The notes below the pieces were generated by a model that was not told the DNA's origin, made no database searches, and saw nothing but the letters and a program-made list of their open reading frames with translations. Below, piece after piece: positions 4,986 through 34,479 of a stretch of 64,000 nt of DNA (positions within the stretch are counted from its first letter, which is position 1; each line of letters begins with the position of its first letter). Position numbers and translations under genes: made by a program. The stretch lies in NCBI GenBank assembly GCA_021735655.1, contig JAIPGM010000001.1, forward strand, positions 192,001-256,000. The letters are read 5' to 3'. Source of the DNA: Candidatus Omnitrophota bacterium (lineage in GTDB: Bacteria; Omnitrophota; Gorgyraeia; Duberdicusellales; 4484-171).

Positions 4986-6293
4986 TTGAAATTACCAATG
5001 AAAAGAAAGAGAATCCTGATTGTCGGAGGCGGGTTAGCCGGCTTAAGTGCTGCCTATTTTTTGGGTAAGCAGGGCCAAGCGGTATCTGTCTTTGAAAGAG
5101 AGAAAGAATGTGGAGGATTGTGCCGTTCAATAAAAAAGAATGGCTTTACCTTTGATTTTGGAGGTCATCTTCTGCACTTCCGAAGAAAGGATATTTTTCT
5201 GCTGGTCAAGAGACTTCTTAAGGGCAATTTGCTAAAACATAAAAGAAGTGCCTGGGTTGATACTCATCAACGTTTATTGCCTTATCCGTTTCAGGCTAAT
5301 CTTTTCGGTCTGCCTAAAAATATAGCTGCAGAATGCCTTCAAAACTTTATTGAGGTTAATACTAATGGACAAAAAACTGCTAAAACCAATAATTTTCGGG
5401 ATTGGATAGATAGCAATTTTGGTAAAGGGATTGCCAGGCATTTTATGGTTCCTTATAACCTTAAATTTTGGAAAATGCCCTTAGAAAACCTTTCTTATGA
5501 ATGGGCAGAGCGATTCGTAGTTCTTCCTTCGCGTAAAGATGTTGTTGAGGGGGCCATTGGAAGCCGAAGTAATAATTTAGGGTATAATTCCTTTTTTTGG
5601 TACCCTAAGCAAGGCGGAATAGAAGAGTTGATAAAGTCTTTTTCCGGTAGGGTGGATGATATTTTTTTAAATTCCGAAGCAGCAGAAATCGACCTAAAGA
5701 ATAAAGCAGTAAGGTTTAAGAATGGTTCCAAAGAGAAATTTGACATTTTAGTTTCTACCATACCTTTACCCGAGCTTGGCAAAATTATTAAAGGATTGCC
5801 AAAAGATATTTTATCTGAATTTAGAAGATTAAACTGGCTATCTATTTATAATATAAATCTAGGGGTAAAAGGAAATATTAGGCCAGGACAACACTGGATT
5901 TACTTTCCGAGAAAAGATAGTTCCTTTTTTAGAGTCGGATTTTTTAATAACTTTTCATCGCAGCTTGCGCCACGAGGCATGAGCTCTTTATATGCCGAAG
6001 CTTCATATCTCGGTGGTTCTGCGATAAGTAAGTCAAGGCTTGCCACGGCGATAAAAAAAGATTTAGCCAGAGCCGGAATTCTCGGAAAGGATAATTCTAC
6101 TTGTTGCGAATACACGAATGATATAGATTACGCTTATCCGATTTATGATAAGAATTATAGGACAGCCAGGCATAGAATTTTTAAGTTTTTGTCGAAAAAC
6201 AAGGTTGTTTCGGTCGGCCGTTATGGCGGTTGGCAATACCTATCTATGGAGGATGTTATTTTGGAGGCCCAAGCTACGGCTAGGAGTATATAA
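4986..6293 (+). CDS. FAD-dependent oxidoreductase, UDP-galactopyranose mutase (Glf)-like / amine-oxidase fold
   Basis: It has an N-terminal Rossmann dinucleotide motif ILIVGGGLAGLSAAYFL...ERE..GG. FGGHLLHF is comparable to the Glf GxHIFH block. The C-terminus YPIYDKNY...VGRYGGWQYLSMEDVI is comparable to the Glf YP...GRL..YKYYDM block. Confidence 0.5.
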   Translation: MKLPMKRKRILIVGGGLAGLSAAYFLGKQGQAVSVFEREKECGGLCRSIKKNGFTFDFGGHLLHFRRKDIFLLVKRLLKGNLLKHKRSAWVDTHQRLLPYPFQANLFGLPKNIAAECLQNFIEVNTNGQKTAKTNNFRDWIDSNFGKGIARHFMVPYNLKFWKMPLENLSYEWAERFVVLPSRKDVVEGAIGSRSNNLGYNSFFWYPKQGGIEELIKSFSGRVDDIFLNSEAAEIDLKNKAVRFKNGSKEKFDILVSTIPLPELGKIIKGLPKDILSEFRRLNWLSIYNINLGVKGNIRPGQHWIYFPRKDSSFFRVGFFNNFSSQLAPRGMSSLYAEASYLGGSAISKSRLATAIKKDLARAGILGKDNSTCCEYTNDIDYAYPIYDKNYRTARHRIFKFLSKNKVVSVGRYGGWQYLSMEDVILEAQATARSI

Positions 6294-7076
6294 ATGAAGT
6301 TTAGAAAAAGAATAAAAAATGTATTTTTCCATAAATCCATTTTGTGGGAGATGTCGATTAAGCAGCTTAAGGCAAAGTATTCTGGTTCTATGTTGGGTAT
6401 TTGGTGGGCAGTGGCGACCCCTCTTATTCTGGCTGTAAGTATTAATTTTATTTTTACTAATGTATTTAAGGTGGGTATTGAAAATTTTACCTTTTTTGTT
6501 TTATCAGGGATAGTCCCTTGGCTATTGTTCTCTAATGCTATAAACGAAGCCGCCGGGTCTTTTATTGCCAATTTTTCGGTATTAAGGCAGGCCATTTTTC
6601 CTCGAGAGTTTGTTCCAATGACTTCGATTATCTCTAATTTTTTAATTTTTCTGATCGGTTTATTGATTCTGCTTCCTTTTTTTATTGTTTCTAATCCGAG
6701 GGTAATTACGGTTTTGCCGTTTCTGTTGGTAGTTTTATTTTTTTATTTATTTTTTCTTGTCGGGCTTGCTATGATTTTTTCATCTTTAAATGTTTTCTTT
6801 CGTGATGTATCCCATCTTTTAGCTATCGGGTTAATGGTTTGGTTTTGGGTTACGCCTATTTTTTACTCTTTGGATATGTTACCGGCTTCATTTCGCTGGA
6901 TCTGCTTAAGTAATCCAGTTACTTACTATGTAGTTTCTTATAGATTAATTTTGTTTGAAGCGAAGCCGTTATCCCTTCCAATTTTGTTAACTTTATTTTT
7001 TATTTCCTTTACGTCATTCATCGTTGGTTATGCCTTTTTCCTTAAAAATGAAAATAGTTTATTAAAACGAGTATGA
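6294..7076 (+). CDS. ABC-2 type polysaccharide exporter permease (Wzm/TagG-like)
   Basis: ILWEMSIKQLKAKYSGSMLGIWWAVATPLI is the canonical ABC-2 (Wzm) N-terminal motif. It has six predicted TM segments. Its ATGA overlap with the downstream ATPase indicates translational coupling. Confidence 0.8.
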   Translation: MKFRKRIKNVFFHKSILWEMSIKQLKAKYSGSMLGIWWAVATPLILAVSINFIFTNVFKVGIENFTFFVLSGIVPWLLFSNAINEAAGSFIANFSVLRQAIFPREFVPMTSIISNFLIFLIGLLILLPFFIVSNPRVITVLPFLLVVLFFYLFFLVGLAMIFSSLNVFFRDVSHLLAIGLMVWFWVTPIFYSLDMLPASFRWICLSNPVTYYVVSYRLILFEAKPLSLPILLTLFFISFTSFIVGYAFFLKNENSLLKRV

Positions 7077-10000
7077 GGATAATAGAATTTAATAATGTTT
7101 GGGAGAAGTACCGGATTAAATTTGTAAGGGACAGGAAAGTTTCTTGGGAAGAAATTTGGGCTTTAAGCAATATAGACTTTACAGTTAATAAGGGTGAAGT
7201 TATAGGAATAATTGGTGAAAATGGTGCCGGAAAAACTACTTTATTAAAATTAATCGCTGGCATGTTTGCTCCGGATAGAGGAGATATATCTGTTCGAGGA
7301 AAGGTATCGGTATTGATGGAGCTAGGGGCTGGTTTTAATCCTGAGTTTACCGGGAGGGAAAATGTTATTCTTAATGCCCGTATCTACGGGTTAGATACAG
7401 ACATAGTTGAACAGCAAATGGAGAAAATCGTCGAATTTGCTGATATTGGTAAATTTATCGATGCCCCGGTTAAATATTATTCACAGGGCATGTATACCCG
7501 TTTAGCATTTGCTTTGGCTATATTTGTAGAGCCGGATATTCTTTTAATTGATGATATTCTATCGGTAGGCGATGCTGACGCACAAAAGAAATGTATTGAT
7601 AAAGTATTCAAGTTAAAGGAATCGGGAAAGACTATTATTTTAGTAAGTCATGACATGCATATGATAAGTAGGCTGTGCGATCGAGTTATCCTTTTGGATA
7701 AAGGTAAACTTATCGACAGAGGTAATCCCGCTGAGATTATCTATCATTACCTAGAGACTGTTGGGGATAAAAGTGGTATTGCAGTTTTAGAAAAGGATAA
7801 ATTAAGATTAGTATTTAATAATGGGAGAATTACTTTTAGCTACGCAGGAGTGCCCCTTACTAAAGAATTTGGTGGTTATGTGGCTTATTTTGTTTCTTCC
7901 CTTGGTAGTTGGCTTTCTTCTTTTGATTTATTCTGGAAGATAAGCCATTTTTCAGCTAATAAAATTGTTGCTGAGGGAGAATATAAAGGTAGAGGGCCTT
8001 CTCAGGTTTGGGTTTTGGAATTTTCTGAAAGCAGATTATGTTGGCAGGTGAAGATAAAAGACAAAGATGTAAGAGATCCGCATATAGATTTATTGCTTAA
8101 CCCTCAATATAAAAAATGGTTAAATTTAGACCAAGGCGGGGGTTTTCCTTCCTTTATTTCTAAATCTACTTGGCAGAATTTGGGTTTAGCTAATTTTCCC
8201 CAAGCTATGGTCGGTTTAACCGCAGACTTGGAAGTTAAGAGTTGTCCTTCTTTTGTTTTGACCGCAGAGGATAAGGATACTCAGATTAGACTTTTCAATA
8301 CAGGTTATGACCAGGAAGGACGCATTATTCAGTTGGATTTAAAGTTAGCCGGAGACAATCTATTTTTTCTTAAAATATTTCCTGAGAAAAATATATTTGA
8401 AGAGTATATTAAAAAAGAGAAAGATATATTTGAAGAGAGCATTAAAAAAGTAAACCAGCAACTAGCTTTAGAGAAAGAAGCGCAACAGGTCAGATTGCGG
8501 GATTTATCAACTTTTGCTTGGGGCAATTTTAGTCTTTTTGCTGATAAGGAGGAAAAGTCTTTAAAGCTATACTTTAAGAATAAAGAAGTCACCAAAAAAG
8601 AAGGATTCCATATATCTTTTTTGATCAATAATATCTGGTACGATACTACTTCTGCGGATTGGCAGATAACTAAAGAAAAGGAAGTTTTCATAATTAAACT
8701 ATTTTGGAAAGTGTTTGATTTTAAACAAACTTGGAAATTTTCAGTTAAGAATGGGGGGCTTCTTTGGAATTTAAATTCCATCGTAAAGAAAACCTTCAAT
8801 CCAGAGATTATGAAAATCGGTTTACTATTAATAAGTGAGTACAAAACTTTCTTTTGCGGTTATCAGCAGGAAGATTTTCCAGATAAATTCAGCTCTTGGC
8901 AGGATATGTCTCTCAAAGACCCGAAAGCAAGATGTTTTGGTTTAAGAAAACAAACATCGTTACCGGCGATTGCTTTAGATAACAATGAAAGTTTTGATTG
9001 TATTGTACAGAACAGCGATGAAGAAAATTCCTGTCGGGTACTACAGCTAAGCCTTCCCAGGCAAAGTTTTATTCAAAAAAATACATCTTTTGGTGTTCAA
9101 CTTAGCCTGCTTGAAGAGGAAAGTCCCATTGATCATTACCTTAAACAAGAAAGACAGGACCATTTACTTAGGCAACAAGAAGCAAAAAGATTGCTTAGCG
9201 CTAAAAGTACTATATCAAAAGATAATTTTCGTTTTTTTGTTGATAAGGAAGAAAAATCTTTAAGGATATACTTTAAGGACAAAGAGATTACTAAAGGGGC
9301 CGGTCTACATAGTTCATTATGCGTTTTCGGGAAGTGGTTTCATAGGGAGGAAACTAGGTGGCAGACAAAAAAGATTTCCGATGAAGAAGTAGTTTTAATT
9401 TTAAGTTATGACTCACTACCGCTTTTACAAATTTTTTCTCTTAGTTTCAAAAGAAAGGGTATTCTAAGAGTTAAAGTCGAAATGGAAATAAGCGAGCAGA
9501 TTCATTTGTCTGATCATCATCTGAAGCTTGAGCTTCAAGATGACTATAATAATTGGGATACTGGCTATGAGCAAGGCAATTTTTTTATTGATCGATATGT
9601 GGATGAGATCGGTCCGATTAGACTAAAAGATAATAGAATTTCGAATATACTATTGAGATCAAACAATGAAAGTAAAATTCCAAAAATGCTTTTGAAAATT
9701 ATTTCCCAAATTGATAGACGAATTATAAACCTTTATAAGCGAAGAAGTGAAGATGGAGAATGCGTTGGCCTTTGCTCTCCTTTGATTGTATCTAAAAAAG
9801 AAGAACTGGTTAAACCTGGAAAGTATACTTATTTCGAAGGAGAAATCATATTTGGAAAAGAAGCTAAATTAGAAAGAGAAGCTTCTAGGGTAGATATTGT
9901 CGAGCTTAAAAAAGATGATATAAGATTTGTTTTTGATCGTGGCAGAGTTAAAATTTTCTGGAAGGAAGAAGAGTTAACTTCGGAATTAGGAATTTATACC

Positions 10001-10540
10001 TCATTGCGTTCAAAAGGAATCTGGCAGGATTCTTACCAGGCAGCTTGGGAAATAGAGCATAAAGCTAAGGAAAAAATTGTGGCAACTGGAGGTTGGCCTT
10101 ACCTTCCCATTTCTCAAACATGGAAATTAGAGTTGCTCGGCAAGAATTCAATATCTTGGCAAGTTGACATGGAGATTTACGGTGAAGTTAATTTAGAGAT
10201 AGAACAGGCTAGTGTAATGATTTCTTCTAAATACAGGAATTGGGAAATTCCCAGTTTTAACAGCGGTAAATTTCTTGATGTCTATGTTAAGAATCACGAT
10301 ATTCTACCTTTTAGATTTTGGTCTGGGGATGCAAACAAGATAGCTGCTGTTTCAGAATGTTTTCCCTCGATAATTTTTAAAAGCGAAAGACAAGATAAAG
10401 AAATGCAGGCGGTTATAGAAAATACAGGTATTTTATATAGGGCAAGGTTGTTGCAGTATCAAAGTACAAGTAATAATGCAATTTTGCCAGGTAAATATCC
10501 ATACTTTAGGGGGATGATAGAAATTGAGACTAGGAAGTAA
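7073..10540 (+). CDS. ABC-2 exporter ATP-binding protein (Wzt/TagH-like) with ~900-aa C-terminal extension containing four repeats of a ~100-aa module
   Basis: The N-terminal 230 aa form an ABC ATPase (Walker A GENGAGKTT, LSVGD, Walker B ILLIDDILSVGD, H-loop SHD). The remaining sequence contains four related modules beginning near nt 7800, 8540, 9220 and 9900 (for example FADKEEKSLKLYFKNKEV...W...W and FVDKEEKSLRIYFKDKEI...). Confidence 0.8.
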   Translation: MRIIEFNNVWEKYRIKFVRDRKVSWEEIWALSNIDFTVNKGEVIGIIGENGAGKTTLLKLIAGMFAPDRGDISVRGKVSVLMELGAGFNPEFTGRENVILNARIYGLDTDIVEQQMEKIVEFADIGKFIDAPVKYYSQGMYTRLAFALAIFVEPDILLIDDILSVGDADAQKKCIDKVFKLKESGKTIILVSHDMHMISRLCDRVILLDKGKLIDRGNPAEIIYHYLETVGDKSGIAVLEKDKLRLVFNNGRITFSYAGVPLTKEFGGYVAYFVSSLGSWLSSFDLFWKISHFSANKIVAEGEYKGRGPSQVWVLEFSESRLCWQVKIKDKDVRDPHIDLLLNPQYKKWLNLDQGGGFPSFISKSTWQNLGLANFPQAMVGLTADLEVKSCPSFVLTAEDKDTQIRLFNTGYDQEGRIIQLDLKLAGDNLFFLKIFPEKNIFEEYIKKEKDIFEESIKKVNQQLALEKEAQQVRLRDLSTFAWGNFSLFADKEEKSLKLYFKNKEVTKKEGFHISFLINNIWYDTTSADWQITKEKEVFIIKLFWKVFDFKQTWKFSVKNGGLLWNLNSIVKKTFNPEIMKIGLLLISEYKTFFCGYQQEDFPDKFSSWQDMSLKDPKARCFGLRKQTSLPAIALDNNESFDCIVQNSDEENSCRVLQLSLPRQSFIQKNTSFGVQLSLLEEESPIDHYLKQERQDHLLRQQEAKRLLSAKSTISKDNFRFFVDKEEKSLRIYFKDKEITKGAGLHSSLCVFGKWFHREETRWQTKKISDEEVVLILSYDSLPLLQIFSLSFKRKGILRVKVEMEISEQIHLSDHHLKLELQDDYNNWDTGYEQGNFFIDRYVDEIGPIRLKDNRISNILLRSNNESKIPKMLLKIISQIDRRIINLYKRRSEDGECVGLCSPLIVSKKEELVKPGKYTYFEGEIIFGKEAKLEREASRVDIVELKKDDIRFVFDRGRVKIFWKEEELTSELGIYTSLRSKGIWQDSYQAAWEIEHKAKEKIVATGGWPYLPISQTWKLELLGKNSISWQVDMEIYGEVNLEIEQASVMISSKYRNWEIPSFNSGKFLDVYVKNHDILPFRFWSGDANKIAAVSECFPSIIFKSERQDKEMQAVIENTGILYRARLLQYQSTSNNAILPGKYPYFRGMIEIETRK
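7790..10250 (+). repeat. Four tandem in-frame copies of a ~100-120 aa protein module inside the Wzt C-terminal extension
   Basis: Read directly in the translation. Each unit has the shape hxhxF(x)...G-h-x-F/W...W...W-x-h-x-h with conserved Trp spacing. The same module recurs in the B12-rSAM genes at 10524 and 18468. Confidence 0.5.
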
Positions 10541-12890: not shown

Positions 12891-15800
12891 AGAATTATCT
12901 AGTCACCTGGGATAAAATATGTAAGGGTATAACTAAGCAAAAGAAGATATTTTGTGGCCCACACACTGTCCAAATAGATTTAACCGACAAATGCAATAGT
13001 AGCTGCGTTGCTTGTTGGATTCACTCACCTTTAGTTGAGGAAAAAAAATCATTTCCAGAAGGCAAAAAACAACTTTCTTTCGAATTAGTTAAAAGTTTGA
13101 TTAATGATTTGTCTGATTTAGGAACTCAGGAGGTAATTTTATCCGGATCAGGGGAGCCATTTTTATATCCAGAAATAAAAGAGGTTATAAAAAATATAAA
13201 GTCAAAAAATATGTATCTAAATATAATTACCAATGCTTCTCTTATCGATGAGGAAATGGCAGAGCTGTTAGTAAAATGCAAAGTCGATTTAATTACTGCC
13301 AGCATATGGGCCGGTGATGCTGAAACTTACAGCTTAACTCATCCAGGAAAAAGCGAAGCTGATTTCGAAAAAATAAAGAGTAACTTAAAGAAATTGGCTT
13401 TTTATAAGAAGCGGTATGGTTCATTGGAGCCGCATTTAAAATTATATAATGTAATTTGCAGTAAAAATTATAGAAATATTGAGGAAATGGTTGATTTTGC
13501 TAAATCAATGGATGCCGATTCTTTAGAGTTTCAGGTTGTTGATATAATTTCTGGGAAAACAGATCATTTGGCCCTGAAAGATGCCTATAAGAGCGAGATA
13601 GTAAATCAATTGGACAATATAAGAAAGCGAAAAGATTTAATATCTTTTAATACGCCTAAAGAAATGCCGATAGATAGTTTTATTGATGAGGAATTTTTTG
13701 ATTTTGGAAAGATTTGGAAAAATTACAAAAACGGCTTTTGCGTTTCTCAGTGTAGCAGTTCTTTGGTTTGCAAAAAAGATCACGAGATAAAAGATAAGAG
13801 AATTATTGTTTCAGAGTCGACATCAACCAGAGGGACTCGTCCGGTTGCATTTTGGTATAAATTTGAAAATAATATATGTAAAACTTGCGAGGAAAATATT
13901 GAGTGCGTTGACGATGAAAATGCAGTGAGCATAAAATTGTTGAATATGTTGGGTATTGGTTCATTTTTGAGGAGATTATTGCGCTCTGATTTAGAGAGAG
14001 GGATATATGAAAAGCAAATAAATAGCATCCCATGTTATATAGGGTGGTATTATTCTCGTATTTTAGCTAATGGTGATGTTATCCCTTGTTGCAAGGCAGG
14101 TAAGTTATCTTTAGGTAATATTAAGAAAAGAACTTTTTCTAAAATTTGGCATTCCTATCGATATAAAAAGTTTCGGCTTAACGCTAAGAATTTAACTAAG
14201 CATCATAAGTATTTTTCTAACATCAATTGCATCAAGAGTTGCGATAATTGGGGAGTAAATTTAGAAATCGACGGGAGATTGAAGGAATTTGAAAATAAAG
14301 AGAAAAAAAAGGAGCCTTACCTTTTAACTATCAAGAATAGCATTATAAAGGGTAGGGTTGAGGATACGCTTGCAAAAATTACTCGTAATATTAAACCGAA
14401 TAATTTAAAAAAGAGATATTCAGAAATTTTAGGTGTATTTGATGGTGAACATGGTTATAAAGGTCCATTCCACGTTCAGATAGACTTGACTAATGATTGC
14501 AATAACACTTGCATTGCTTGTTGGTGCAATTCACCTCTTTTGAAAGAGAAACGATTATCGGCTGATAAAAAAAATCAATATTTACCTTTAGGAATGGTAA
14601 AGGAATTATTGGATGAGATTACTAATATGGGTGCTACTGAGGTCTATTATTCAGGAAGTGGTGAACCATTTATGCATCCAGCGATTATGGAGATTCTCGA
14701 TTATTCAAAAAAGAAAGGTTTAATCTGTCACGTAAATACTAATTTTACTCTTCTTAATCAAGAAAAGATAGATTGCTTAATCGATATGGAGGTTGACCAT
14801 CTTACGGTGAGTGTTTGGGCGGCTACGGCCGAAACTTATGCAAAAACTCATCCTAATAAAACCGAGGCTGACTTTCAACGGATAAAAGAGAATTTACTAT
14901 ATCTGAACTTACGAAAGAAAAGTAAGCCCTGTATAAAAATTTATAACGTTATTTTTAACATGAATTACCTTGAAGTTGAGAAGATGCTTGATTTTGCCGT
15001 TGAGACTAAATCTGAATCTTTAGAATTTACCCTTGTAGATACTATGCCTGGGGCTACTGATATGCTTGCTTTAAATCAAGGACAGTTGGATGAGCTTAAT
15101 GATTTATGCAGGAAAATAAAATTAAAATTAGATAAAAATTACATAATTAGGAGTAAAAAGGTATTGCTTTTTCAGTTTGAGCAGTTTTTGAGAAGGATTT
15201 CTGTTTCTCAAGATGTCCAGGAGGCAAAATACGATAGAGGTGTTATTGATAGTATGCCTTGTTATATTGGTTGGCTTTTTGCACGAATAATTCCTAACGG
15301 GGAAGTTCATTCTTGTCTTAAGGCGCATAGAATTCCGACCGGTTCTTTGTATAAAGATAGATTTTTCGAAATTTGGAATAGTGCTAAACAGGCACATTTT
15401 CGTAAAAAGACTTTAGTTTGCAGAAAAGATGATCCTTTCTTTAGGTTGATTGGCAACGATCCCAATACAAAGGAGGCCGGTTGTTACAAGAGTTGCGATG
15501 ATATCGGGAGGAACACTTGGATGCATAACAAGATGAATATGTTGACGCCACTGGGAAGGCTGACACTTAAGTACGTAGCTAAAGCCATGAAGCCTCTAAG
15601 GAGGCTTAGGTCCAAAAACGATAATTTTAAGAATTACCACAGTGACCCTTTAATTGCCGGGGTCATCCATGGCCGGAAGGCTTTTTTGGGACCCGAACAA
15701 GTAGTAATTGATCCGACCAATAAGTGTAATTTGCAATGCATTTCTTGTTGGATGTATTCGCCATTATTGAAAAAAAATAAACCAGCTTTGGATTTATTGA

Positions 15801-16741: not shown

Positions 16742-16747
16742 AGTTAA

Positions 16748-17566: not shown

Positions 17567-17591
17567 ATAAGCAAAATTGTGAAAATTTAAG

Positions 17592-18464: not shown

Positions 18465-18467
18465 AGG

Positions 18468-20636: not shown

Positions 20637-20646
20637 AAATTTACAT

Positions 20647-23600
20647 ATGAATCTAACAGATAAAATTTTATTAGTGGGTCTTGCTCCTTGGGGAGTAGAT
20701 ACGCCACCCCTAGCCTTAGCTTGTTTAAGTACCTCTTTGAGGAATGCAAATATTAGCACTGAAGTATTTGATATGAATATTGAGCTTTACAATGCCGTTA
20801 ATGAGCAAAGTAAATATTTGTGGAGTATGAATTATTCTCATTGGTGGCGAGAGCCAGAAAGATATTCTGATATTAGAAAGGAATTAGATGTTTACATAGA
20901 ACCTTTAATAAAGAAAATTTTAAGTTTTAAGCATAAGATAGTTGGCTTTTCACTTTCTACTAATTGCTCTGACCTTTTGTTGGAGGAGATAGTAAAAAGA
21001 ATAAAAACTAGCGATCCCGATAAGGTAATAATTCTAGGTGGTGTTTCAATTTCAATAAATGAGCAGAGAAATGATTTAATTAGGAAGTTAAGGACGCAGA
21101 TAGATTACTGTGTGATTGGAGAAGGAGAAGAGGTACTTGTCGAATTGGTAAAGAAAATAGCTAGCAATAAGCTAGAAGATATAGGTCGATTGCCAGGCAT
21201 AATTAAGAAGGGTGAGTTTGAAGGAGTTAAACAGAGGGCAGAGATCAAAGATTTTAATTCGCTGCCATTTCCTACATTTGAAGAATTCAATTTAAAAAAA
21301 TATAAAGCACCCGTGAGCTTACCTATGGAATTTTCTCGTGGCTGCGTAGGTAGTTGTCCTTTCTGCGATTTTAAAAGCGTTTCTTCTGCCTTTAAGTCAA
21401 AAGCACCTTATTATATTATAAGCCAGATAAAATTCTATAAAGAAAAATACAATATTATTCATATGAGCCTATCTGACCCAGCAGTAAATGGAGATATTAG
21501 GGTTCTTGAGCAAATATGTGATTTATTAATCGAAGCTAACCTTTCTGTAAATATAAATTCTCTGGCAATTCCCCGCAAGGAAATGACCTTAGAACTATTA
21601 GAGAGAATGAAGAAAGCAGGTTTTTATCGTTTGGAGTATGGTCTAGAGAGCGGTTCGAATAAGATTCTCAAAGCAATGAGGAAAATATTTACTGTCGAAA
21701 TTGCCGAGAAAGTTATCCGAGATACTTATCAAGCAGGGATAAAAACATATCTCTATTTAATTGTGGGTTATCCACAGGAGACAGAGGATGATCTCAATCA
21801 GACCAAAGATTTTTTGAATAGAAACCGTCAGTATATTTCCATGATAAAGTCTATCAACCCTCTTTATGTAATGGCCGGTTCAGAGATATTTTGCAATCCC
21901 GATAAATATCAAGTCACATTACCGGCTAAAGATAGTGACAAGAGATGGTTTATTGGTGATAAGAATACATATTCTTTGCGAAAAGCCCGGATATTTGAAC
22001 TTAAAAAAGTAGTTGCTAGTTTAAATATTCCCTTTACCGAAGAGGCGGAATCTTTAGAGTTTACTGGAAACTCTTTAAATAAACAACAAGGAATCGTTGT
22101 AGGTGGAGGCAATCCATACGATAAAGATGAGTCAACTACAGAAAATAAAATTATGTCTAGAGGATATGCAGAACAAAAAACAGATAAATATAGAGATAGT
22201 TTTTTATTAATTAATTTGCCCCCTTGGGGTCAAGAAAATCCTCATATCGGAGTAGGCTATGTGTGTAGCTATCTTCGTCATAAAGGCTTTAAGCCATCGG
22301 TCTTAGACTTGAATAAGAAATTTTATTTGAGTCAGCCAAATTTTCAAATGCTCTGGCATGTAGAAAATAAAAACTTTTGGTCAAATCAAGATTCTTTTCC
22401 TTTGATTTTAAAATTATTTAAGAAGGAAATAGATAAGGCAATAAATGATATTTTGTCTTCAGGTTGCAGCCTATTAGGTTTCTCGGTAGTTGACCCTAAA
22501 GAAAAAATAACTATAGAGTTCATTAGGAGAATAAAACGTAGGGATAAAAGTAAAAAGATAATTTTAGGTGGTCCGGCAACTTCTACTTATGAGCAGAGAA
22601 AGATATTTTTGGATAATGTTGAGGAAGAGATAGATACTTTTGTGATCGGCGAAGGCGAGCAAACTTTGTTTAAGGTAGTAGACCGAATTTTAAAGAAAAA
22701 AGAGCTTAAAGGTATCGAGGGTTGTTGCAGCCGGGATAATGGTAAGTGGGTTTGTCGAGAAAGCGGTGAGATTGTTTCTTTAGATAAGATTCCTTTCCCG
22801 ACCTATGAGGAATTTGATTTGAGTCTATACGGTAAATCTTTCCTTGTTGAATGGTCAAGAGGCTGTAGGAGTAAATGCGCTTTTTGCAAAAATTATCGGC
22901 TTTTTTCTTCTTATCGGTCAAAGTCAGCTGAATCGGTTATGAAGGAATTGAGATATCATAAGCAAAAGTATAATGTAGATGAATTCACTGTAGTCGATAA
23001 TATTTTGAATGGTGATCTAAATACCTTGAATGATATTTGCGACAGGATAATAAAGGAAAATCTTCAAATTAGATGGACTGGGCAAATTGCCCCCCGCAAA
23101 GATATGAATTTTGAATATTTCCAAAAAATGAAGCAGGCCGGATGTTTTAAACTTCAAATTGGCCTTGAGTCTGGTTCGAACAAGGTGTTAAAGTTAATGC
23201 ATAAGAGCTTTACGGCAGAGATTTCTGAAAAAAATATAATTTTTGCTAAGAAAGCAGGCATTGAGACAGAAATTTTTACAATGATTGGTTTTCCCGGGGA
23301 GGCTGAGAAAGATTTTCAAGAAACTTACGATTTTATAAAAAGAAATGCAAAATATCTGGATACCATAAAATCGATAAACACCTTACATCTAATAGCCGGA
23401 ACTGAAATCTATGAGCAGAGAGAGCGTTTTAAAATAAAGCCTTTACCTCAAGAAAACTGGCATTATTTATGGGAAACTTATGAGGGAAATACATACAAGG
23501 TACGGGAAGAAAGAGCTAAGCGTATTCTAGGGTTAGCTTGCGATCTTAAGATTAAAGTTATGGAGACTAATATTATAGAGGGAAAAGAGCAAAAAGTTTT

Positions 23601-23805
23601 GCTTGAAAATCTCGGCTTATTGGAAAAATCCCTGAATTCTTTGCAAGAGTTACCAGAAAAAGAAGAATTTAAGCTAAAAAGAAGAAATATTAATAAATGG
23701 TTAATCCTGATTTTTGTTTCTTTTTACACATTTTTTTATATTATTTATTTTTGGGTATTTATGATTTTTAGAAATAAAGTTCTCTTGGGGGGAAGAAAAA
23801 AGTGA
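20647..23805 (+). CDS. Double B12-binding radical SAM fusion (two complete class-B rSAM units) with C-terminal transmembrane helix
   Basis: Unit 1 has LLVGLAPWGVDTPPLALACL... followed by EFSRGCVGSCPFC (~21331-21369). Unit 2 has LLINLPPWGQENPHIGVGYV... followed by EWSRGCRSKCAFC (~22861-22890). The C-terminus WLILIFVSFYTFFYIIYFWVFMIF is a predicted TM anchor. Confidence 0.75.
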   Translation: MNLTDKILLVGLAPWGVDTPPLALACLSTSLRNANISTEVFDMNIELYNAVNEQSKYLWSMNYSHWWREPERYSDIRKELDVYIEPLIKKILSFKHKIVGFSLSTNCSDLLLEEIVKRIKTSDPDKVIILGGVSISINEQRNDLIRKLRTQIDYCVIGEGEEVLVELVKKIASNKLEDIGRLPGIIKKGEFEGVKQRAEIKDFNSLPFPTFEEFNLKKYKAPVSLPMEFSRGCVGSCPFCDFKSVSSAFKSKAPYYIISQIKFYKEKYNIIHMSLSDPAVNGDIRVLEQICDLLIEANLSVNINSLAIPRKEMTLELLERMKKAGFYRLEYGLESGSNKILKAMRKIFTVEIAEKVIRDTYQAGIKTYLYLIVGYPQETEDDLNQTKDFLNRNRQYISMIKSINPLYVMAGSEIFCNPDKYQVTLPAKDSDKRWFIGDKNTYSLRKARIFELKKVVASLNIPFTEEAESLEFTGNSLNKQQGIVVGGGNPYDKDESTTENKIMSRGYAEQKTDKYRDSFLLINLPPWGQENPHIGVGYVCSYLRHKGFKPSVLDLNKKFYLSQPNFQMLWHVENKNFWSNQDSFPLILKLFKKEIDKAINDILSSGCSLLGFSVVDPKEKITIEFIRRIKRRDKSKKIILGGPATSTYEQRKIFLDNVEEEIDTFVIGEGEQTLFKVVDRILKKKELKGIEGCCSRDNGKWVCRESGEIVSLDKIPFPTYEEFDLSLYGKSFLVEWSRGCRSKCAFCKNYRLFSSYRSKSAESVMKELRYHKQKYNVDEFTVVDNILNGDLNTLNDICDRIIKENLQIRWTGQIAPRKDMNFEYFQKMKQAGCFKLQIGLESGSNKVLKLMHKSFTAEISEKNIIFAKKAGIETEIFTMIGFPGEAEKDFQETYDFIKRNAKYLDTIKSINTLHLIAGTEIYEQRERFKIKPLPQENWHYLWETYEGNTYKVREERAKRILGLACDLKIKVMETNIIEGKEQKVLLENLGLLEKSLNSLQELPEKEEFKLKRRNINKWLILIFVSFYTFFYIIYFWVFMIFRNKVLLGGRKK

Positions 23806-24962
23806 AAATACTAATGGTGCACCCCCATGATTTATTTGATCGGTCTGAACCTTGGACGATAAGAATTAAGAGTATAGCCAGAGAATTTGAGAAAAAGGAT
23901 CACAAGGTTAAATTGTGTTATTTCCCTTTAACTATAAATGAAAAACATTATCCTAAAAATATGGGATCTATAGAACTGATCCCCTTAGATCGAACACCTT
24001 CTCCGAAAGCTTTTATTATAAATATAATTAAACTTATAAAATTGTGTAAATGGGCGAATATCGTCCACTTGCAGAAATGTCATCATTACTCTTCAATCCC
24101 TACGGTAATTGCTGCCTATATTGCCGCTAAGCCTCTTCATTATGACTGGGATGATTGGGAGGAGAAAATTTGGTATGAATCCTGCGGTAGAGGTTTACAT
24201 TCCCGTTTCATCGGTTTTTCATTTAAAGTATTAGAGAGATGGCTTCCGGTTTTAGCTGATTCAACTTCTTGTGCTAGCAAGTGTTTGAGAAACTTAACTT
24301 ATAAGTTTGGAGTAAAAAAAGAATACATATTTGATACTCCGGTAGGAGCTGATCTAGATAAATTTAAGCCTAGCCTAAATGGTCAATGGGTTAAGAAAAA
24401 ATTCAATATTAGTTCAGATTTAGTTTTATATATTGGTCAGTTACACGGAGCCCAATACGTAGATATATTTATAAAAGCGGCCAATATCCTTTCTTCTGAG
24501 CGGCCGGATGTCAAATTTATGATTGTTGGTGAAGGTTTTTCGGAACATTCATTGAAACAGCTTACTTATGATTTAGGCTTAAAAGATAAAGTTATTTTTA
24601 CCGGGAGCATACCTTATGGTGATATTCCCGATTATGTTAATGCTGCATCAGTATGCGTGGCACCCTTTAAAGATACTGAGGTAACTCGTTGCAAGAGTCC
24701 TTTAAAAATTGCAGAGTATTTAGCCAGCGGTAAACCAATAGTGGCAAGTTTAGTAGGTGAAGTAAGAAATATGATCGGCGGCTGTGGAGTTTTAGTCAAG
24801 CCGGGGGATCATCATTCTTTAGCTGAAGGAATTCTGCGCCTAGTTGAAGATAAAGAATTAAGAGGTAAATTATCTAAGCATGCACGTAAGCGGGCTGAGA
24901 GAAAGTATAACTGGACCAACACGGCAGATTCCTTAATTTGCGCCTACAAAAAGATACTGTAA
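23802..24962 (+). CDS. Glycosyltransferase family 4 (GT-B, retaining)
   Basis: The GT4 C-terminal domain has the EX7E-type region EGFSEH...KIAEYLASGKPIVAS. The ATGA overlap with the upstream gene indicates coupling. Confidence 0.8.
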   Translation: MKILMVHPHDLFDRSEPWTIRIKSIAREFEKKDHKVKLCYFPLTINEKHYPKNMGSIELIPLDRTPSPKAFIINIIKLIKLCKWANIVHLQKCHHYSSIPTVIAAYIAAKPLHYDWDDWEEKIWYESCGRGLHSRFIGFSFKVLERWLPVLADSTSCASKCLRNLTYKFGVKKEYIFDTPVGADLDKFKPSLNGQWVKKKFNISSDLVLYIGQLHGAQYVDIFIKAANILSSERPDVKFMIVGEGFSEHSLKQLTYDLGLKDKVIFTGSIPYGDIPDYVNAASVCVAPFKDTEVTRCKSPLKIAEYLASGKPIVASLVGEVRNMIGGCGVLVKPGDHHSLAEGILRLVEDKELRGKLSKHARKRAERKYNWTNTADSLICAYKKIL

Positions 24963-26062
24963 TGAAGTTTGTATTTATAACTCGAGAAGGCCTTGAGAAT
25001 CCGGGAGCCAGAACCCGTTGTTATAGTTTATCGGCTAAACTAAGGCAAAAAGGACTAAGGGCTGATGTTTTTTCTTTTTCCGATAGGTTGGGTGCTAAAT
25101 CAGGAAAAGATGAAATTGATTTTACTTTTTTTGAGAAGTTTAAGCATATTTATAAGGGATTTAAGTTACTCTCAAAAGAAAAAGATAAGCCGATCTTTAT
25201 CGTAAATCGCTTTAATTATCATACAATTCCGGCATGGCTAGTTTCTAAGCTTAAAAAGATACCTTTGGTGTTTGATATGGATGATTGGGAGGCAAGAGAA
25301 GATATAGGGTATTATTTTGGACTATTCCCTAAGTCAAAAGCCGAATACCTTGCTGGTTTATTTGCAAAGAACAGCATGTTTTGTATTGCGGCTAGTAATT
25401 ATTTAAGAGATTATCTTTTGCAGTTTAACAAGAAGGTTTATTATCTGCCCACCGGAGTAGATACTGATAAATTTAAGTCCCTTGGTCGTAAAGACAAGAA
25501 AGATTTTATTTTTTCATGGCATGGTTCGGTGAATAGGATAGAGGTTTTAAAATATATAAAATTTATCATTGATTGCTTTTTGGCTATTCGTAAAAAATAT
25601 CCTTTTATTAAGCTGGTTATTGCCGGAGACGGTATTTTCGGAAATGAATTGCGAAAATTAGTCAAAGCTTCGAGTTCTAACAGTATAATATATGCTGGGT
25701 GGATTAATTATCGGAGTATTCCCAGTCATCTAGATAGTATTGATGTTGGATTGGTACCGCTTTTGGATAAGACCCGGTTTAATTTATCAAAAAGCCCGGT
25801 TAAATTATTTGAATATATGGCTATGGCCAAGCCAACCATCTCTAGTAATATCGGAGAAGCAGCCAGTATTATTGATAATGGCGAGAATGGATTTTTAGCT
25901 GGAACCGAGGAAGAATTTTTAGAAAGGATGGAAGCTCTGATTAAAGATAAAGATTTGGGTAAAAAGATAGGGGATAATGCTCGTAAAACAGTAGAGAAGC
26001 AATACTCTTTAGATGTCGTTAGTGAATCAGCCTATGAAATATTGGCTGGTATCAATGCTTAG
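24962..26062 (+). CDS. Glycosyltransferase family 4
   Basis: TAATG overlap start. The motifs are GDGIFGNELRKL...KLFEYMAMAKPTISS (EX7E-like) and GFLAG. The ORF-track start 24938 would overlap the upstream gene by 25 nt, so the ATG at 24962 is preferred. Confidence 0.8.
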   Translation: MKFVFITREGLENPGARTRCYSLSAKLRQKGLRADVFSFSDRLGAKSGKDEIDFTFFEKFKHIYKGFKLLSKEKDKPIFIVNRFNYHTIPAWLVSKLKKIPLVFDMDDWEAREDIGYYFGLFPKSKAEYLAGLFAKNSMFCIAASNYLRDYLLQFNKKVYYLPTGVDTDKFKSLGRKDKKDFIFSWHGSVNRIEVLKYIKFIIDCFLAIRKKYPFIKLVIAGDGIFGNELRKLVKASSSNSIIYAGWINYRSIPSHLDSIDVGLVPLLDKTRFNLSKSPVKLFEYMAMAKPTISSNIGEAASIIDNGENGFLAGTEEEFLERMEALIKDKDLGKKIGDNARKTVEKQYSLDVVSESAYEILAGINA

Positions 26063-26107
26063 AATTTTCACAGTTGCTATAACTTAAGGAATAAAGGAGA
26101 ATTTGAT

Positions 26108-26785
26108 TTGGGTTATCTTGTTGAGACGCATCAACTAACTAAAATATTTAAGCCACACAAAGGCATTGGTGAGAAGCTTAGAGGCTCAGCAGCTCGAACC
26201 GAGGTAAAGGCTGTAGATAGAGTTAGTTTTTCTTTAGAAGCAGGTTCCACCATGGCTATTATGGGTCCTAATGCTGCCGGAAAAACAACTCTTTTAAAAC
26301 TAATCGCTTCTTTAATTATTCCAACCAGTGGTCGGATTTCGGTTAAAGGTACAATTGGTTTGGTTACCGGGGAAGAGAGGAGTTTTTACTGGCGCTTGAG
26401 CGGTCAGCAGAATTTAGAGTTTTTTGCTGCTTTGTACGGTTTGGGAAAATCCGAAGCCAAGAGGCGAATCCAGCAGTTGGTTGAATTGCTGGGCATCGAG
26501 GATATGAGTGATGTTCTGGTTCAAGAGTATTCCTCGGGATACAAACAGAGGCTGGCTATTGCTAGAGGATTATTGCATGATCCGGATATCTTGCTTTTAG
26601 ATGAACCCACTAAAAATTTGGATTCTTCTCACGCTGAACATTTAAGAATTTTTATAAGAGAAAACTTAGGTAAAGAAAGCAAAAAGACAGTTATTTTTAC
26701 TAGTCATAACTTAGAGGAAGCTTCGTTTTTAGCGAATAAATTAGCAGTAATGGATAAGGGTTGCCTAAGGCAACAGGATAGTTGA
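26108..26785 (+). CDS. ABC transporter ATP-binding protein (ABC-2 exporter type)
   Basis: TTG start with AAGGAG 9 nt upstream. Walker A is GPNAAGKTT, the signature is SSGYKQRLAIARG, Walker B is LLLDEP and the H-loop is TSHN. Confidence 0.8.
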   Translation: MGYLVETHQLTKIFKPHKGIGEKLRGSAARTEVKAVDRVSFSLEAGSTMAIMGPNAAGKTTLLKLIASLIIPTSGRISVKGTIGLVTGEERSFYWRLSGQQNLEFFAALYGLGKSEAKRRIQQLVELLGIEDMSDVLVQEYSSGYKQRLAIARGLLHDPDILLLDEPTKNLDSSHAEHLRIFIRENLGKESKKTVIFTSHNLEEASFLANKLAVMDKGCLRQQDS

Positions 26786-26786
26786 T

Positions 26787-27590
26787 ATGGGAAAAATTAT
26801 AGCATTTATTAAGAAAGATTTTCAAATTTTTTTAAGTTATAAGCTATTTTTCATGTTGCGTTGGGCGGGTATTGTTATACCGGTTGTTACTTTTTATTTT
26901 ATATCTAAGTTTATCGACCAGCAGGGGAATATTGCCTTCAGCGAATATCGAGGAGGGTACTTCCCTTTTGTGGTTATAGGCTTGTCAGTATACGGCTATC
27001 TTCTTGTCTTGTTGCGTTCAGCTTCTGAAGGTATGCGGCAGGAGCAGATGTACGGAACTTTAGAGGTTATTTTTGCTACCCCGGTAAAAAGTAGTATCGT
27101 AGCAATTTCGGCAGGTTTGTGGAATAGTCTTATTGCTTTAGTTGCTATGGTGGTATGTTTGGTAACCGGAATTTTATTGTTTAAGGAGGGCATTGTTGCT
27201 TTGGATTGGTTTGCCTTATTTTTAACTTTAATTATGATTGTCGTTAATTTTTTAAGCATAGGTATATTGGCTGCTGCAGTAATAGTGGTTTGTAAAAGAG
27301 GTGATCCGATTGCTTGGTTTGCTAGTACATTCTTTGCTTTTTTTGGCGGAGTTTATTATCCAGTGAGTGTTTTGCCTAAAGGGTTTCAGAAAATATCTCA
27401 GTTTTTACCGATCACTTATGCTGTCAGGGCTTTGCGTAAAGTTATACTTGCCGGGGCAACATCTGTCGAGATAACTAACGAGTTAGTTGTGTTGTTTATT
27501 TGTGCAGTATGTTTGTTGCCTTTATCTTTAATTATTTTTAGTTATGCTGTGCGGCGAGCTAAGATGAGCGGTAGCTTATCTTATTATTAG
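26787..27590 (+). CDS. ABC-2 family exporter permease
   Basis: It has six predicted TM helices and sits immediately after its ATPase with a 1-nt gap. It has no similarity to importer permeases. Confidence 0.7.
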   Translation: MGKIIAFIKKDFQIFLSYKLFFMLRWAGIVIPVVTFYFISKFIDQQGNIAFSEYRGGYFPFVVIGLSVYGYLLVLLRSASEGMRQEQMYGTLEVIFATPVKSSIVAISAGLWNSLIALVAMVVCLVTGILLFKEGIVALDWFALFLTLIMIVVNFLSIGILAAAVIVVCKRGDPIAWFASTFFAFFGGVYYPVSVLPKGFQKISQFLPITYAVRALRKVILAGATSVEITNELVVLFICAVCLLPLSLIIFSYAVRRAKMSGSLSYY

Positions 27591-27597
27591 GTAATGA

Positions 27598-28944
27598 TTA
27601 TTCACTTAAATTGTTGGTAATATTTTGCTGGGCATAAACTTCATTAACATAAATTCCTAGCCCTTCTGGGGAGAATCGCTTTTTTGGAACAATGCGTATA
27701 CACCCTTTATATTTTTCAATTACATCTTTTCGAATCATTTTTTTAAATGTTTTTAAACTTTTGTTGTAGTCGTGGCTCGGCCAGAAATTGTATTTTTTAT
27801 TTAGGCGGGAGTAATTTAAAAAACGATCCGGGTTAGATATTATTTTTTCCAGATCGCAGTTAAACCGGTCATTGAAATAATCTATATTTATTCCCTCGGG
27901 TAATAGAAGCTGTAGGTAGATAGCACGTAGAAGGCTCCAGTAAAATGGTTTGTCGTTAGAGAGAAGCGCTTTGGTTTGGCTGAGAGGATTTTTGATGTAC
28001 TCTTTGATATTTATTGAATTCATGCCGTCCCAGCCTATGGCTCCGGCGCCAAGGCCCATAAAGGGAACGCAGAAAACAAAGATTAGTTCTGATAGAAACT
28101 CTTTTCCTTTTTTGGCAAAATAAGTATGAAAATAATTAGGATATCCATTGTTAGATAAATAGTCGTAGGCATGGAGGATTAAATCTAAATTGCCCGCTAT
28201 CAAGTTCATTCGGTATGGGTTGAATATTTTTTTTTCGATTATGTTCGTTGATTTATCAAATAAGGGGCCAGGCACCGGGAGTAAGGTGGCATAAGACATG
28301 TGGTCTGGTTCCATGCTAACAGCAATTTTTAAGTCATCTTTGCATTCGGAAAACGTCTGGCCTGGAAAGTTGCATAGCAAGTCAAGGTTTACGTTTTTAA
28401 AACCAACCTTACGTATGCGATCGTAACTAGAATAAATATCCTTTGCTCGGTGGTCGCGGTTTAAGCCTGAGAGGATTTTGTTATTAAAAGTTTGCACCCC
28501 GATACTTATTCGGTTAAACCCTATAGATTTTAAGCCGCGGACTTTTTGGTCAGTTAAAGAATCAGGAGTTGCTTCTATGCTTATTTCTACGATGTCGCTT
28601 CTATTTTGTCCGGAGCAGGAAAGTATTGAAGAAATTATCTTATCCAGTTCTTTTACCGAGAGTAAAGACGGAGTTCCTCCGCCAAAATAAATTGCTTTTA
28701 GCTTTGTTTTTCGGTTTTTTTCGGAACAAAAGCTTTTTACCGCGAGCTCTTTTAAGAGAGCTTTGATGTAAGGGGTTTTTAGTTCTTTTAAGGCTAGAAA
28801 ATCATTATTATACCTGCGGCAGAAACAACAGAAGTGACATTTGTATTTACAAAAAGGGATGTGGACATATACTAGTGATAAGTCATTGGATTGTCGTAAC
28901 TGCGGTATGGTAAGAGTTGCTTTGGATTTTTGTAGATTGCCCAT
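27598..28944 (-). CDS. HemN/HemW-like radical SAM enzyme (class-C rSAM fold; coproporphyrinogen-III-oxidase family)
   Basis: The N-terminus is VYVHIPFCKYKCHFCCF (CxxxCxxC, ~28810-28860 on the - strand). The family-specific YFGGGTPSLL motif is present. Confidence 0.7.
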   Translation of the reverse strand: MGNLQKSKATLTIPQLRQSNDLSLVYVHIPFCKYKCHFCCFCRRYNNDFLALKELKTPYIKALLKELAVKSFCSEKNRKTKLKAIYFGGGTPSLLSVKELDKIISSILSCSGQNRSDIVEISIEATPDSLTDQKVRGLKSIGFNRISIGVQTFNNKILSGLNRDHRAKDIYSSYDRIRKVGFKNVNLDLLCNFPGQTFSECKDDLKIAVSMEPDHMSYATLLPVPGPLFDKSTNIIEKKIFNPYRMNLIAGNLDLILHAYDYLSNNGYPNYFHTYFAKKGKEFLSELIFVFCVPFMGLGAGAIGWDGMNSINIKEYIKNPLSQTKALLSNDKPFYWSLLRAIYLQLLLPEGINIDYFNDRFNCDLEKIISNPDRFLNYSRLNKKYNFWPSHDYNKSLKTFKKMIRKDVIEKYKGCIRIVPKKRFSPEGLGIYVNEVYAQQNITNNLSE

Positions 28945-34442: not shown

Positions 34443-34479
34443 TTATAGTGATAATATTATAGTAGACAGGAGATTAGCT

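Follow-up and report, generated by a model that had tools for sequence, protein, structure and literature searches.

A radical SAM enzyme cassette associated with a Wzm/Wzt-type glycan exporter in a Candidatus Omnitrophota bacterium and its relatives

We analysed a 64 000-nt stretch of DNA (hereafter the window; positions 192 001 to 256 000 of contig JAIPGM010000001.1, assembly GCA_021735655.1) from a Candidatus Omnitrophota bacterium, in which a dense run of genes for radical S-adenosylmethionine (rSAM) enzymes lies among genes for a putative glycan exporter and glycosyltransferases (GTs) at positions 4986–28944. ORFs of at least 100 amino acids (aa) in the window were scanned with Pfam, and the domain content obtained is the basis of the gene list described below. 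The gene order and domain content that a first-pass annotation had claimed for 4986–28944 were recovered, including nine rSAM domains within 24 kb (CX3CX2C motif intact in 9/9), and the five rSAM genes it had placed further downstream (33288, 37161, 39797, 62098 and 63213) are likewise real according to Pfam. Over the whole window, 11 of approximately 47 genes encode rSAM proteins, with 14 domains between them, and the G+C content is approximately 36%.

The cassette is headed by a plus-strand gene for a flavin adenine dinucleotide (FAD) enzyme (4986–6293; Pfam Amino_oxidase and NAD_binding_8), the start codon of which is probably the ATG at 4998. Its product aligns over the full length to the Trypanosoma cruzi UDP-galactopyranose mutase (UGM) 4DSG (E value 4.5e-46) and fails the bacterial UGM equivalog model TIGR00031 (64.7 bits versus a cut-off of 303.75); the earlier description as 'Glf-like' thus holds in the sense of a eukaryote-type UGM homologue, not of a bacterial UGM. 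The following two genes encode an ABC-2 permease beside its cognate ATPase of the TagH/Wzt type. The Wzm-like permease (6294–7076, plus strand; PF01061, 46 bits) has at least five hydrophobic segments, and its sole NCBIfam match is the galactan exporter permease Wzm/RfbD (54 bits, under the cut-off). The Wzt/TagH-like ATPase (7073–10540, plus strand; PF00005) is a protein of 1155 aa, of which aa 1–235 (7073–7780) form the nucleotide-binding domain; it scored highest against the models for TagH, with 205 bits, and for galactan Wzt, with 156 bits, neither of which reaches the equivalog cut-off. The remainder is an extension of approximately 900 aa, overlooked in the first-pass annotation, which matches neither the Wzt_C module (PF14524) nor any other Pfam model and is made up of four tandem copies (7784–10537; aa 238–475, 485–700, 718–945 and 950–1155) of a unit that we call domain X.

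Downstream of the exporter, eight rSAM domains are distributed over five co-directional genes (10524–23805), followed by two GT genes. The first of the five (10524–12890, 788 aa) combines an N-terminal domain X (aa 47–300, nt 10662–11423) with a B12-type rSAM core. The start of this gene is uncertain: the longest ORF begins with TTG and overlaps the ATPase gene by 17 bp, while the start chosen by NCBI is the ATG at nt 10662, 46 codons later, which yields a protein of 742 aa and leaves a gap of 121 bp. It is followed by a gene for three rSAM/SPASM units on a single 1284-aa protein (12887–16741; three Radical_SAM and three SPASM stretches; 100% identical to MCF7907307.1 at NCBI), a class I SAM methyltransferase gene (16748–17566; Methyltransf_11, _31 and _23) and a gene for a small rSAM/SPASM protein of 290 aa, approximately the size of BtrN (17592–18464; PF04055 and PF13186). 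The last two rSAM genes encode a 722-aa B12-rSAM protein with a C-terminal domain X (18468–20636; PF02310 and PF04055; X at aa 495–722, nt 19950–20633) and a 1052-aa protein with two B12-rSAM units (20647–23805; two B12-binding and two Radical_SAM stretches). The two GT genes (23802–24962 and 24938–26062) both encode GT4 enzymes (Glycos_transf_1 and Glyco_trans_1_4), lie with overlapping junctions within the same co-directional unit and are kept in relatives. Next come genes for a DrrA-like ABC ATPase and an ABC-2 permease (26108–27590; PF00005 and PF01061; drrA, 177 bits) and, convergently on the minus strand, a gene for an rSAM protein (27598–28944).

All genes from 4986 to 27590, including those of the cassette, lie on the plus strand; neighbouring genes overlap by up to 25 bp (by 4 bp in three cases) or are separated by up to 45 bp; the tight co-directional packing claimed for the whole region is therefore real for this part of it, though not for the minus-strand gene at its end. 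A class I methyltransferase occupies the matching position in some relatives (loci L011, L013, L014 and L085). An assembly artefact was rejected as the source of the arrangement, as the same proteins are encoded in a 341-kb NCBI contig of a metagenome-assembled genome and in an independent 130-kb Logan assembly (run SRR12088349).

The radical enzymes resemble characterised enzymes distantly, in several cases enzymes that act on sugars or cyclitols. The SPASM domain PF13186 was found in three stretches of the 12887 protein and in one of the 17592 protein. The three CX3CX2C motifs of the triple protein (aa 36, 538 and 947) are invariant in 16 orthologues, and when a profile of its family was compared with the PDB, the best match was BtrN (E value 7e-10), followed by MoaA, BlsE, GDGT-MAS, SkfB, DesII and PqqE. 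BtrN was also the only PDB match of the 290-aa protein (E value 2.8e-8); with E values of 1e-8 to 1e-10, these similarities stay below equivalog level. BtrN is the 2-deoxy-scyllo-inosamine dehydrogenase, which oxidises an alcohol of a cyclitol. The core of the 10524 protein has its best PDB match in AprD4 (E value 1.9e-26), a diol dehydratase that dehydrates a sugar diol, and its score against the AprD4 equivalog model is 107 bits versus a cut-off of 500. In NCBIfam, its best match is HpnJ (236 bits over aa 296–737; cut-off 577.6), which acts on a hopanoid-linked glucosamine, that is, on a sugar head group. The description of this protein as a B12-rSAM enzyme receives mixed support, as it has no Pfam B12-binding match of its own, although its orthologues do and the HpnJ and BchE alignments span that region.

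A PF02310 B12-binding domain followed by an rSAM core is present in the 18468 protein and in both units of the 20647 protein, the latter with CX3CX2C motifs at aa 233 and 740. These units are class-B-like and score similarly against models for P-methyltransferases, C-methyltransferases of RiPPs (peptides synthesised ribosomally, then modified after translation) and BchE; TIGR03975 is the top NCBIfam match of the double protein. Relatives such as BchE, HpnJ and AprD4 do not methylate, and sequence cannot tell methylases from them. Given that all cassette rSAM proteins score far below the cut-offs of characterised families, any reaction types assigned to them are guesses, and the C-methylation, epimerisation and deoxygenation that the first-pass annotation had envisaged, together with oxidation, are backed by distant homology only. 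Epimerisation of sugars by twitch rSAM relatives has been described for NeoN, HygY and an avilamycin epimerase (cited in PMC10991966). The three SPASM units of the triple protein are paralogous (34–43% identity), as are the 18468 unit and the two 20647 units (32–34% identity), and these two paralogous groups indicate duplication within the cassette.

Domain X links the exporter to the radical enzymes. This unit of approximately 210 aa is present in six copies on three proteins: four on the ATPase, one at the N-terminus of the 10524 rSAM protein and one at the C-terminus of the 18468 B12-rSAM protein. In pairwise BLAST comparisons, the copies match each other with E values of 1e-6 to 4e-19 (1e-6 to 1e-15 among the copies within the ATPase tail; 4e-19 between the copies of the 18468 and 10524 proteins), and a search of the window returned no copies beyond these six. 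The fold is a galactose-mutarotase-like beta-supersandwich, as known from aldose 1-epimerases and from the accessory domains that glycoside hydrolases, lyases and phosphorylases carry. Residues of the types T, W, Q, Y, F and P are invariant over the six copies. A catalytic mutarotase activity was rejected, as no His or Glu is conserved, and from its sequence we read domain X as a putative binding module rather than an enzyme. As no transmembrane segments were found in the Wzt or rSAM proteins, the copies that they carry are cytoplasmic.

Queried with the alignment of domain X, a word-indexed homology search gave only three fragments; instead, an exhaustive profile search was run over 1.84 billion representative proteins, clustered at 50% identity. 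Domain X is carried by 631 clusters, and no Pfam model matches it. Among the best 150 of the 631, 87 have a Wzt-like ATPase domain, 13 have an rSAM domain (B12, SPASM or both) and no ATPase, two more have both, eight have an N-terminal PMT_2 (GT-C) domain, one has a sulfatase behind an N-terminal hydrophobic signal or anchor and the remainder are fragments of X copies only. All partners identified in this sample are thus exporter ATPases, rSAM enzymes, glycosyltransferases or a sulfatase. The occurrence of domain X on cytoplasmic and on probably extracytoplasmic proteins suggests that its ligand is probably present on both sides of the membrane, which fits an exported glycan. A second module of carbohydrate type, an insert with the fold of CBM35, a family that typically binds polymer chains, sits inside the cytoplasmic triple rSAM protein of relatives.

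Three membrane glycosyltransferases of the PMT_2 (GT-C) family are encoded elsewhere in the window (41908–45081 and 55673–57244) and carry no domain X; in other genomes, members of this family are fused to two to four copies. In one such locus (L088, ENA ERZ23498622), the gene for a PMT_2 protein with three copies has cobalamin-related neighbours, namely two genes for CobD/CbiB and an ABC importer of the FecCD type, as well as a B12-rSAM gene on the opposite strand.

The cassette is not peculiar to this genome. The triple rSAM protein has 94 homologues at an E value of 1e-10 or better, of which those with a named source are from Omnitrophota or Omnitrophica. For a census of loci, one genome per GTDB species was retained, ORFs were called locally and labelled with the window's own domains, and 80 loci resulted. 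In this comparative survey, of the kind proposed with the first-pass annotation, the cassette recurs in these 80 loci, almost all Omnitrophota; most records are Omnitrophota or uncultured 'Planctomycetia' bins, and a few are named Calescamantes, Caldisericota, Desulfatiglandales, Myxococcales or Aminicenantes. The recurrent order is a UGM-like FAD enzyme, Wzm, an ATPase with one to five X domains, an X-B12-rSAM protein, a multi-unit rSAM/SPASM protein, further rSAM proteins and one to three GT4s. Upstream sequence reaches 8 kb or more in 26 loci; of these, 21 have Wzm, 20 an X-fused ATPase and 11 the UGM-like FAD enzyme. Of the 50 loci in which the sequence continues for 8 kb or more downstream, 28 have a GT4 gene downstream of the rSAM block, and in many of those without one the run of rSAM genes extends beyond the flank. 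Fusions of domain X to a B12-rSAM (56/80) or a SPASM rSAM (29/80) are common, nearly all labelled ORFs (510/512) lie on one strand and at least one glycan marker is present in 48 of the 52 loci of at least 15 kb. As the arrangement recurs in 80 species-level loci, the clustering is not due to chance, and positions 4986–26062 are one copy of a cassette that is widespread in Omnitrophota. The rSAM genes do not part from the glycan genes in relatives, where synteny is kept.

Two elements that the first-pass annotation had counted within the region fall outside this cassette. Its second ABC-2 exporter was rejected as a conserved component, since the 26108–27590 pair is co-directional yet not conserved in relatives: in 0/80 loci was any ORF closer to this pair than to Wzm/Wzt. 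The convergent 'HemN-like' gene does encode an rSAM protein, but one that matches the housekeeping heme chaperone HemW over its full length (TIGR00539 hemN_rel, a borderline 205.5 bits versus a cut-off of 205.4) and lies on the opposite strand, on which grounds we rejected it as a member of the system; no HemW homologue appeared in the gene tables of three relatives' loci, HemW not having been a query in the 80-locus census.

Individual relatives fill in parts of the picture. A WecA-like gene is present in 8/80 loci and a WaaL-like gene (Wzy_C) in three distinct loci. Of the loci anchored on Wzt-X, L085 runs GT4, WecA-type PF00953, FAD enzyme, Wzm, Wzt with three X domains, rSAM, triple rSAM, methyltransferase and rSAM; L086 runs GT4, PF00953, FAD enzyme, TPR protein, Wzm and Wzt with two X domains before the contig ends; and in L087, the FAD enzyme, Wzm and Wzt with two X domains are followed by seven rSAM genes, between which a single GDSL gene is placed. 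L063 and L064 have at least nine rSAM/SPASM genes in succession. Together with L087, these two loci represent a denser form of the cassette, in which six to more than nine consecutive genes for single-domain rSAM or rSAM/SPASM proteins of approximately 330–350 aa follow Wzt-X. A different type of cassette, with a GT4 fused to rSAM/SPASM, was found in L003, L034, L065, L079 and L080, of which L065, L079 and L080 are recorded as Desulfatiglandales, Kofleriaceae and Myxococcales, respectively; L003 (6138–16965; JGI 3300020814) also encodes a carbamoyltransferase-rSAM/SPASM fusion and a methyltransferase fused to a canonical Wzt_C.

We therefore favour, with a probability of roughly 0.6, a reading in which a lipid-linked glycan would be radically tailored in the cytoplasm and then recognised and exported by Wzt. 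The first-pass annotation had likewise placed the rSAM enzymes in a glycan export and assembly operon and proposed that they tailor the glycan, and this proposal gains support from synteny, the shared domain X, the fusions and the CBM35-fold insert in relatives and the relatedness to BtrN and AprD4. In the pathway that we envisage, the UGM-like flavoenzyme would supply a furanose nucleotide sugar, and the two GT4s would extend the glycan on a lipid carrier at the cytoplasmic face. This carrier is probably polyprenyl phosphate, given that a WecA-type transferase is encoded directly upstream in several relatives, though not in the window. The eight rSAM domains and the class I methyltransferase would then alter the sugar rings: oxidation or epimerisation of secondary alcohols is suggested for the four BtrN-like rSAM/SPASM units, deoxygenation or ring rearrangement for the one AprD4/HpnJ-like unit and methylation of unactivated carbon for the three class-B B12 units. 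The tailoring would take place in the cytoplasm, since this is the only compartment with SAM, reductant and cobalamin. Domain X may direct two of the rSAM enzymes to their substrate, and its four copies on Wzt may bind the finished glycan and couple its recognition to export, much as the canonical C-terminal carbohydrate-binding module of Wzt does for capped O-antigens.

Several points weigh against this reading. The evidence is computational throughout, and no cassette rSAM protein reaches the cut-off of any NCBIfam model, while the double B12-rSAM protein scores near its best against the RiPP C-methyltransferase subfamily (280 bits, two units summed). The six domain X copies share no invariant His, Glu or Asp, which fits binding but does not prove it, and the triple rSAM protein of the window lacks the CBM35-fold insert. 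Neither an initiating phosphoglycosyltransferase of the WecA/WbaP type nor WaaL was found in the window. Finally, operon status is deduced from gene spacing only. Scans for sigma-70 promoters and intrinsic terminators over 4500–35000 returned no more than shuffled sequence did; the single promoter-like site (4915–4942), in the gap 5′ of the first gene, carries no statistical weight.

In an alternative that we consider less likely, albeit with arguments in its favour, nucleotide-sugar monomers are the substrates of the rSAM enzymes, which would turn them into one or more unusual sugars (branched, deoxy or epimerised) before polymerisation by the GT4s, with domain X binding a monosaccharide unit rather than the polymer. 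The sugar-acting rSAM enzymes characterised so far all use small soluble substrates, the nearest solved relatives of the cassette enzymes are BtrN and AprD4, and the UGM-like enzyme at the cassette head itself acts on a nucleotide sugar. Such an order of events is harder to reconcile with four tandem X domains on Wzt and with a CBM35-fold insert from a family that typically binds polymers. Moreover, domain X also occurs on the tails of GT-C proteins and in a sulfatase that has a signal or anchor segment, and nucleotide sugars are absent outside the cytoplasm, while the presence of several rSAM units per polypeptide suggests repeated action on one large substrate. These points are not decisive; modification of monomers is plausible and can coexist with that of the polymer.

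We regard it as improbable that the cassette instead makes a glycoside or glycolipid of small size for secretion, such as a pseudo-oligosaccharide resembling an aminoglycoside, with the ABC-2 transporter acting as a drug-type exporter. Aminoglycoside clusters are composed of such parts (BtrN-like and AprD4-like rSAM enzymes, GT4s, an ABC exporter), and the two GT4s weakly match the small-molecule glycosyltransferases MshA and BshA. However, Pfam finds neither a 2-deoxy-scyllo-inosose synthase nor an aminotransferase in the cassette genes, the ATPase is of the TagH/Wzt type with the permease gene placed first, relatives have WecA-type (PF00953) and WaaL-type genes next to the cassette and the modules of carbohydrate-binding type stand in tandem.

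A further possibility, raised with the first-pass annotation, is that the rSAM proteins are RiPP maturases that all serve a Cys-rich peptide encoded at 34480, or some other peptide, with the glycan genes as mere neighbours. A genuine RiPP-like unit does lie 6 kb downstream (32995–34653), comprising genes for a PqqD-like chaperone of 97 aa (32995–33288), an rSAM/SPASM protein of 384 aa (from 33288; best match an ACGX-system model, under the cut-off) and the peptide itself, which has 57 aa, a Lys-rich N-terminal part and the terminal sequence TTAGCGCCGCCCCW (GCGCCGCCCCW) and matches no NCBIfam model. SPASM and class-B rSAM enzymes are, moreover, common in RiPP clusters, and TIGR03975 heads the NCBIfam matches of the double B12-rSAM protein. 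We nevertheless rejected a RiPP reading of the cassette as very improbable. As gaps within the cassette do not exceed 45 bp (121 bp with the NCBI start), there is no space between the called genes for a precursor gene. A PqqD homologue was found in 0/80 related loci, where the synteny of Wzm, Wzt-X and GT4 is kept, and no such peptide unit is present in the relatives' gene tables inspected. The 33288 rSAM protein matches the SPASM units of the cassette with only 40–51 bits, the peptide maturases SkfB and PqqE rank under BtrN, MoaA and BlsE in the PDB profile search and the modules on the cassette rSAM proteins are of carbohydrate type rather than peptide-recognition elements. The 32995–34653 region is thus best described as a RiPP-like unit apart from the cassette, with at least the 33288 rSAM protein, of the five encoded later in the window, predicted to serve that unit.

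A membrane lipid substrate (hopanoid, ladderane-like or tetraether-like), with the ABC-2 transporter moving lipid, has equally little to commend it: there are matches to HpnJ (236 bits), to a B12-rSAM model for ladderane-type lipid biosynthesis (179 bits) and to Tes or GDGT-MAS, a tetraether synthase, but all lie far under the cut-offs, HpnJ itself works on the sugar head group of a hopanoid, the cassette contains no lipid-synthesis genes and the UGM-like enzyme, GT4s, mutarotase-like domains and CBM35-fold insert all point to carbohydrate, although biosynthetic gene cluster miners have reported 'ladderane' clusters in Omnitrophota (PMC9902471).

The rest of the window contains further loci of note. 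After the peptide gene, 34669–40843 encodes a protein of 296 aa that has a P-loop motif and matches no family, a signal-anchored protein of 260 aa and a homologue of signal peptidase I of the archaeal type (TIGR02228, 67.6 bits versus a cut-off of 51.85), after which come genes for a Ta0216-like B12-rSAM protein, a PF14907 nucleotidyltransferase (minus strand) and an rSAM/SPASM protein (minus strand) that is 25–28% identical to the units of the triple rSAM protein. LarE-like, LarB-like and LarC genes for the nickel-pincer cofactor are present at 50745–54760 (LarC versus PF01969, 478 bits); a gene for a DUF362 protein follows instead of LarA, and acyl-CoA dehydrogenase, AMP-ligase, GDSL and MBOAT genes precede them. 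Two adjacent genes at 57260–61128 encode paralogues of 644 aa (35% identity) that have 8–10 hydrophobic segments and match nothing in Pfam or NCBIfam; their flanking genes are of the PMT_2 (GT-C) and GT2 types. A second coupling of GT and rSAM genes occurs at 61109–64000, where a GT2 gene (61109–62101) overlaps an rSAM gene (62098–63213) by 4 bp, which in turn overlaps a B12-rSAM gene (63213 to the window end, where it is cut off) by 1 bp.

Omnitrophota are ultra-small, often host-dependent bacteria. To our knowledge, rSAM chemistry on carbohydrates has so far been known from small-molecule antibiotics and cofactors, and in the open-access full-text literature we found no paper that describes rSAM enzymes as part of Wzm/Wzt, O-antigen or capsule assembly; matches in the Xanthomonas literature proved unrelated. 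A 2026 preprint on Omnitrophota genomes reports that radical SAM and GT1 domains of giant proteins co-occur in a Pfam module termed 'sugar metabolism'; it also covers polysaccharide cassettes that vary, though not the present one. Clusters rich in rSAM genes have been reported from Omnitrophota of the Cariaco Basin as RiPP and 'ladderane' clusters (PMC9902471). Some of the RiPP or 'ladderane' calls that rule-based miners have made in Omnitrophota may, owing to their rSAM content, be cassettes like the one described here, which is a warning for genome mining that such clusters may be miscalled.

If radical tailoring of a lipid-linked glycan is indeed the function of the cassette, a phylum-wide cassette with at least eight rSAM domains acting on an exported glycan would open a new area of rSAM enzymology and envelope glycobiology, and the surface polymers of Omnitrophota would be predicted to contain sugars that are hard to make by polar chemistry. 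The cassette also defines two putative recognition modules, domain X and the cytoplasmic CBM35-fold insert, the first of which would be a variant answer to the question of how Wzt transporters recognise their cargo. A bolder version of this reading, which we put forward only tentatively, is that Omnitrophota and a few other anaerobic lineages tailor finished lipid-linked polysaccharide with rSAM assembly lines (at least ten in a row in some loci), guided by a new carbohydrate-binding family that also gates export by Wzt. Were this so, it would be a polysaccharide counterpart of RiPP logic, in which a recognition module, radical tailoring and ABC export are combined, and the surface glycans would be expected to contain kinds of sugar new to cell envelopes, whether C-methyl, keto, deoxy, epimerised or cross-linked.

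Comparison with known systems brings out what is shared and what is distinctive. RiPP clusters follow an analogous logic, with a recognition domain, serial rSAM tailoring of one polymeric substrate and an ABC exporter, but the module of the cassette has a carbohydrate-type fold and is not a RiPP recognition element, and neither the cassette nor the 80 relatives yielded a precursor peptide or a PqqD homologue. Among NCBIfam models, HpnJ comes closest to the 10524 protein, but there are no hopanoid genes nearby, and here the protein carries an N-terminal domain X. The rSAM enzymes of aminoglycoside pathways (BtrN, AprD4, the NeoN and HygY epimerases and the B12 C-methyltransferase GenK) include the nearest solved relatives, BtrN and AprD4, and perform ring chemistry on a sugar or cyclitol. 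They are, however, single-domain enzymes that act on small soluble antibiotic intermediates, whereas the units of the cassette are fused in twos and threes, accompanied by carbohydrate-type modules and encoded in an export operon, the product of which is probably a polymer; the 2-deoxy-scyllo-inosose synthase and aminotransferases of aminoglycoside clusters are not among the Pfam matches of the cassette genes.

The closest overall likeness is to the Wzm/Wzt and TagGH pathways (E. coli O9a, Klebsiella galactan and mycobacterial galactan; TagGH for teichoic acid), which share with the cassette the order of permease then ATPase, a C-terminal extension of the ATPase, GTs in the operon, WecA/WaaL-type neighbours (in relatives only) and a glycan presumably completed in the cytoplasm before export. 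The cassette differs from them in its set of eight rSAM tailoring domains, which we did not find reported for such pathways, and in the nature of the extension, which consists of one to five mutarotase-like domains (four in the window) instead of PF14524. No chain terminator of the WbdD type, be it a kinase or a methyltransferase, was identified. Wzt_C occupies the same place C-terminal to the ATPase and presumably has the same role in glycan recognition, whereas domain X differs from it in fold and size (a supersandwich of approximately 210 aa), is arranged in tandem and is present on the tailoring enzymes as well. The frame is thus that of a standard ABC-transporter-dependent glycan pathway, to which the cassette adds a putative radical tailoring block that seems to be unprecedented and a hitherto unrecognised family of putative recognition domains.

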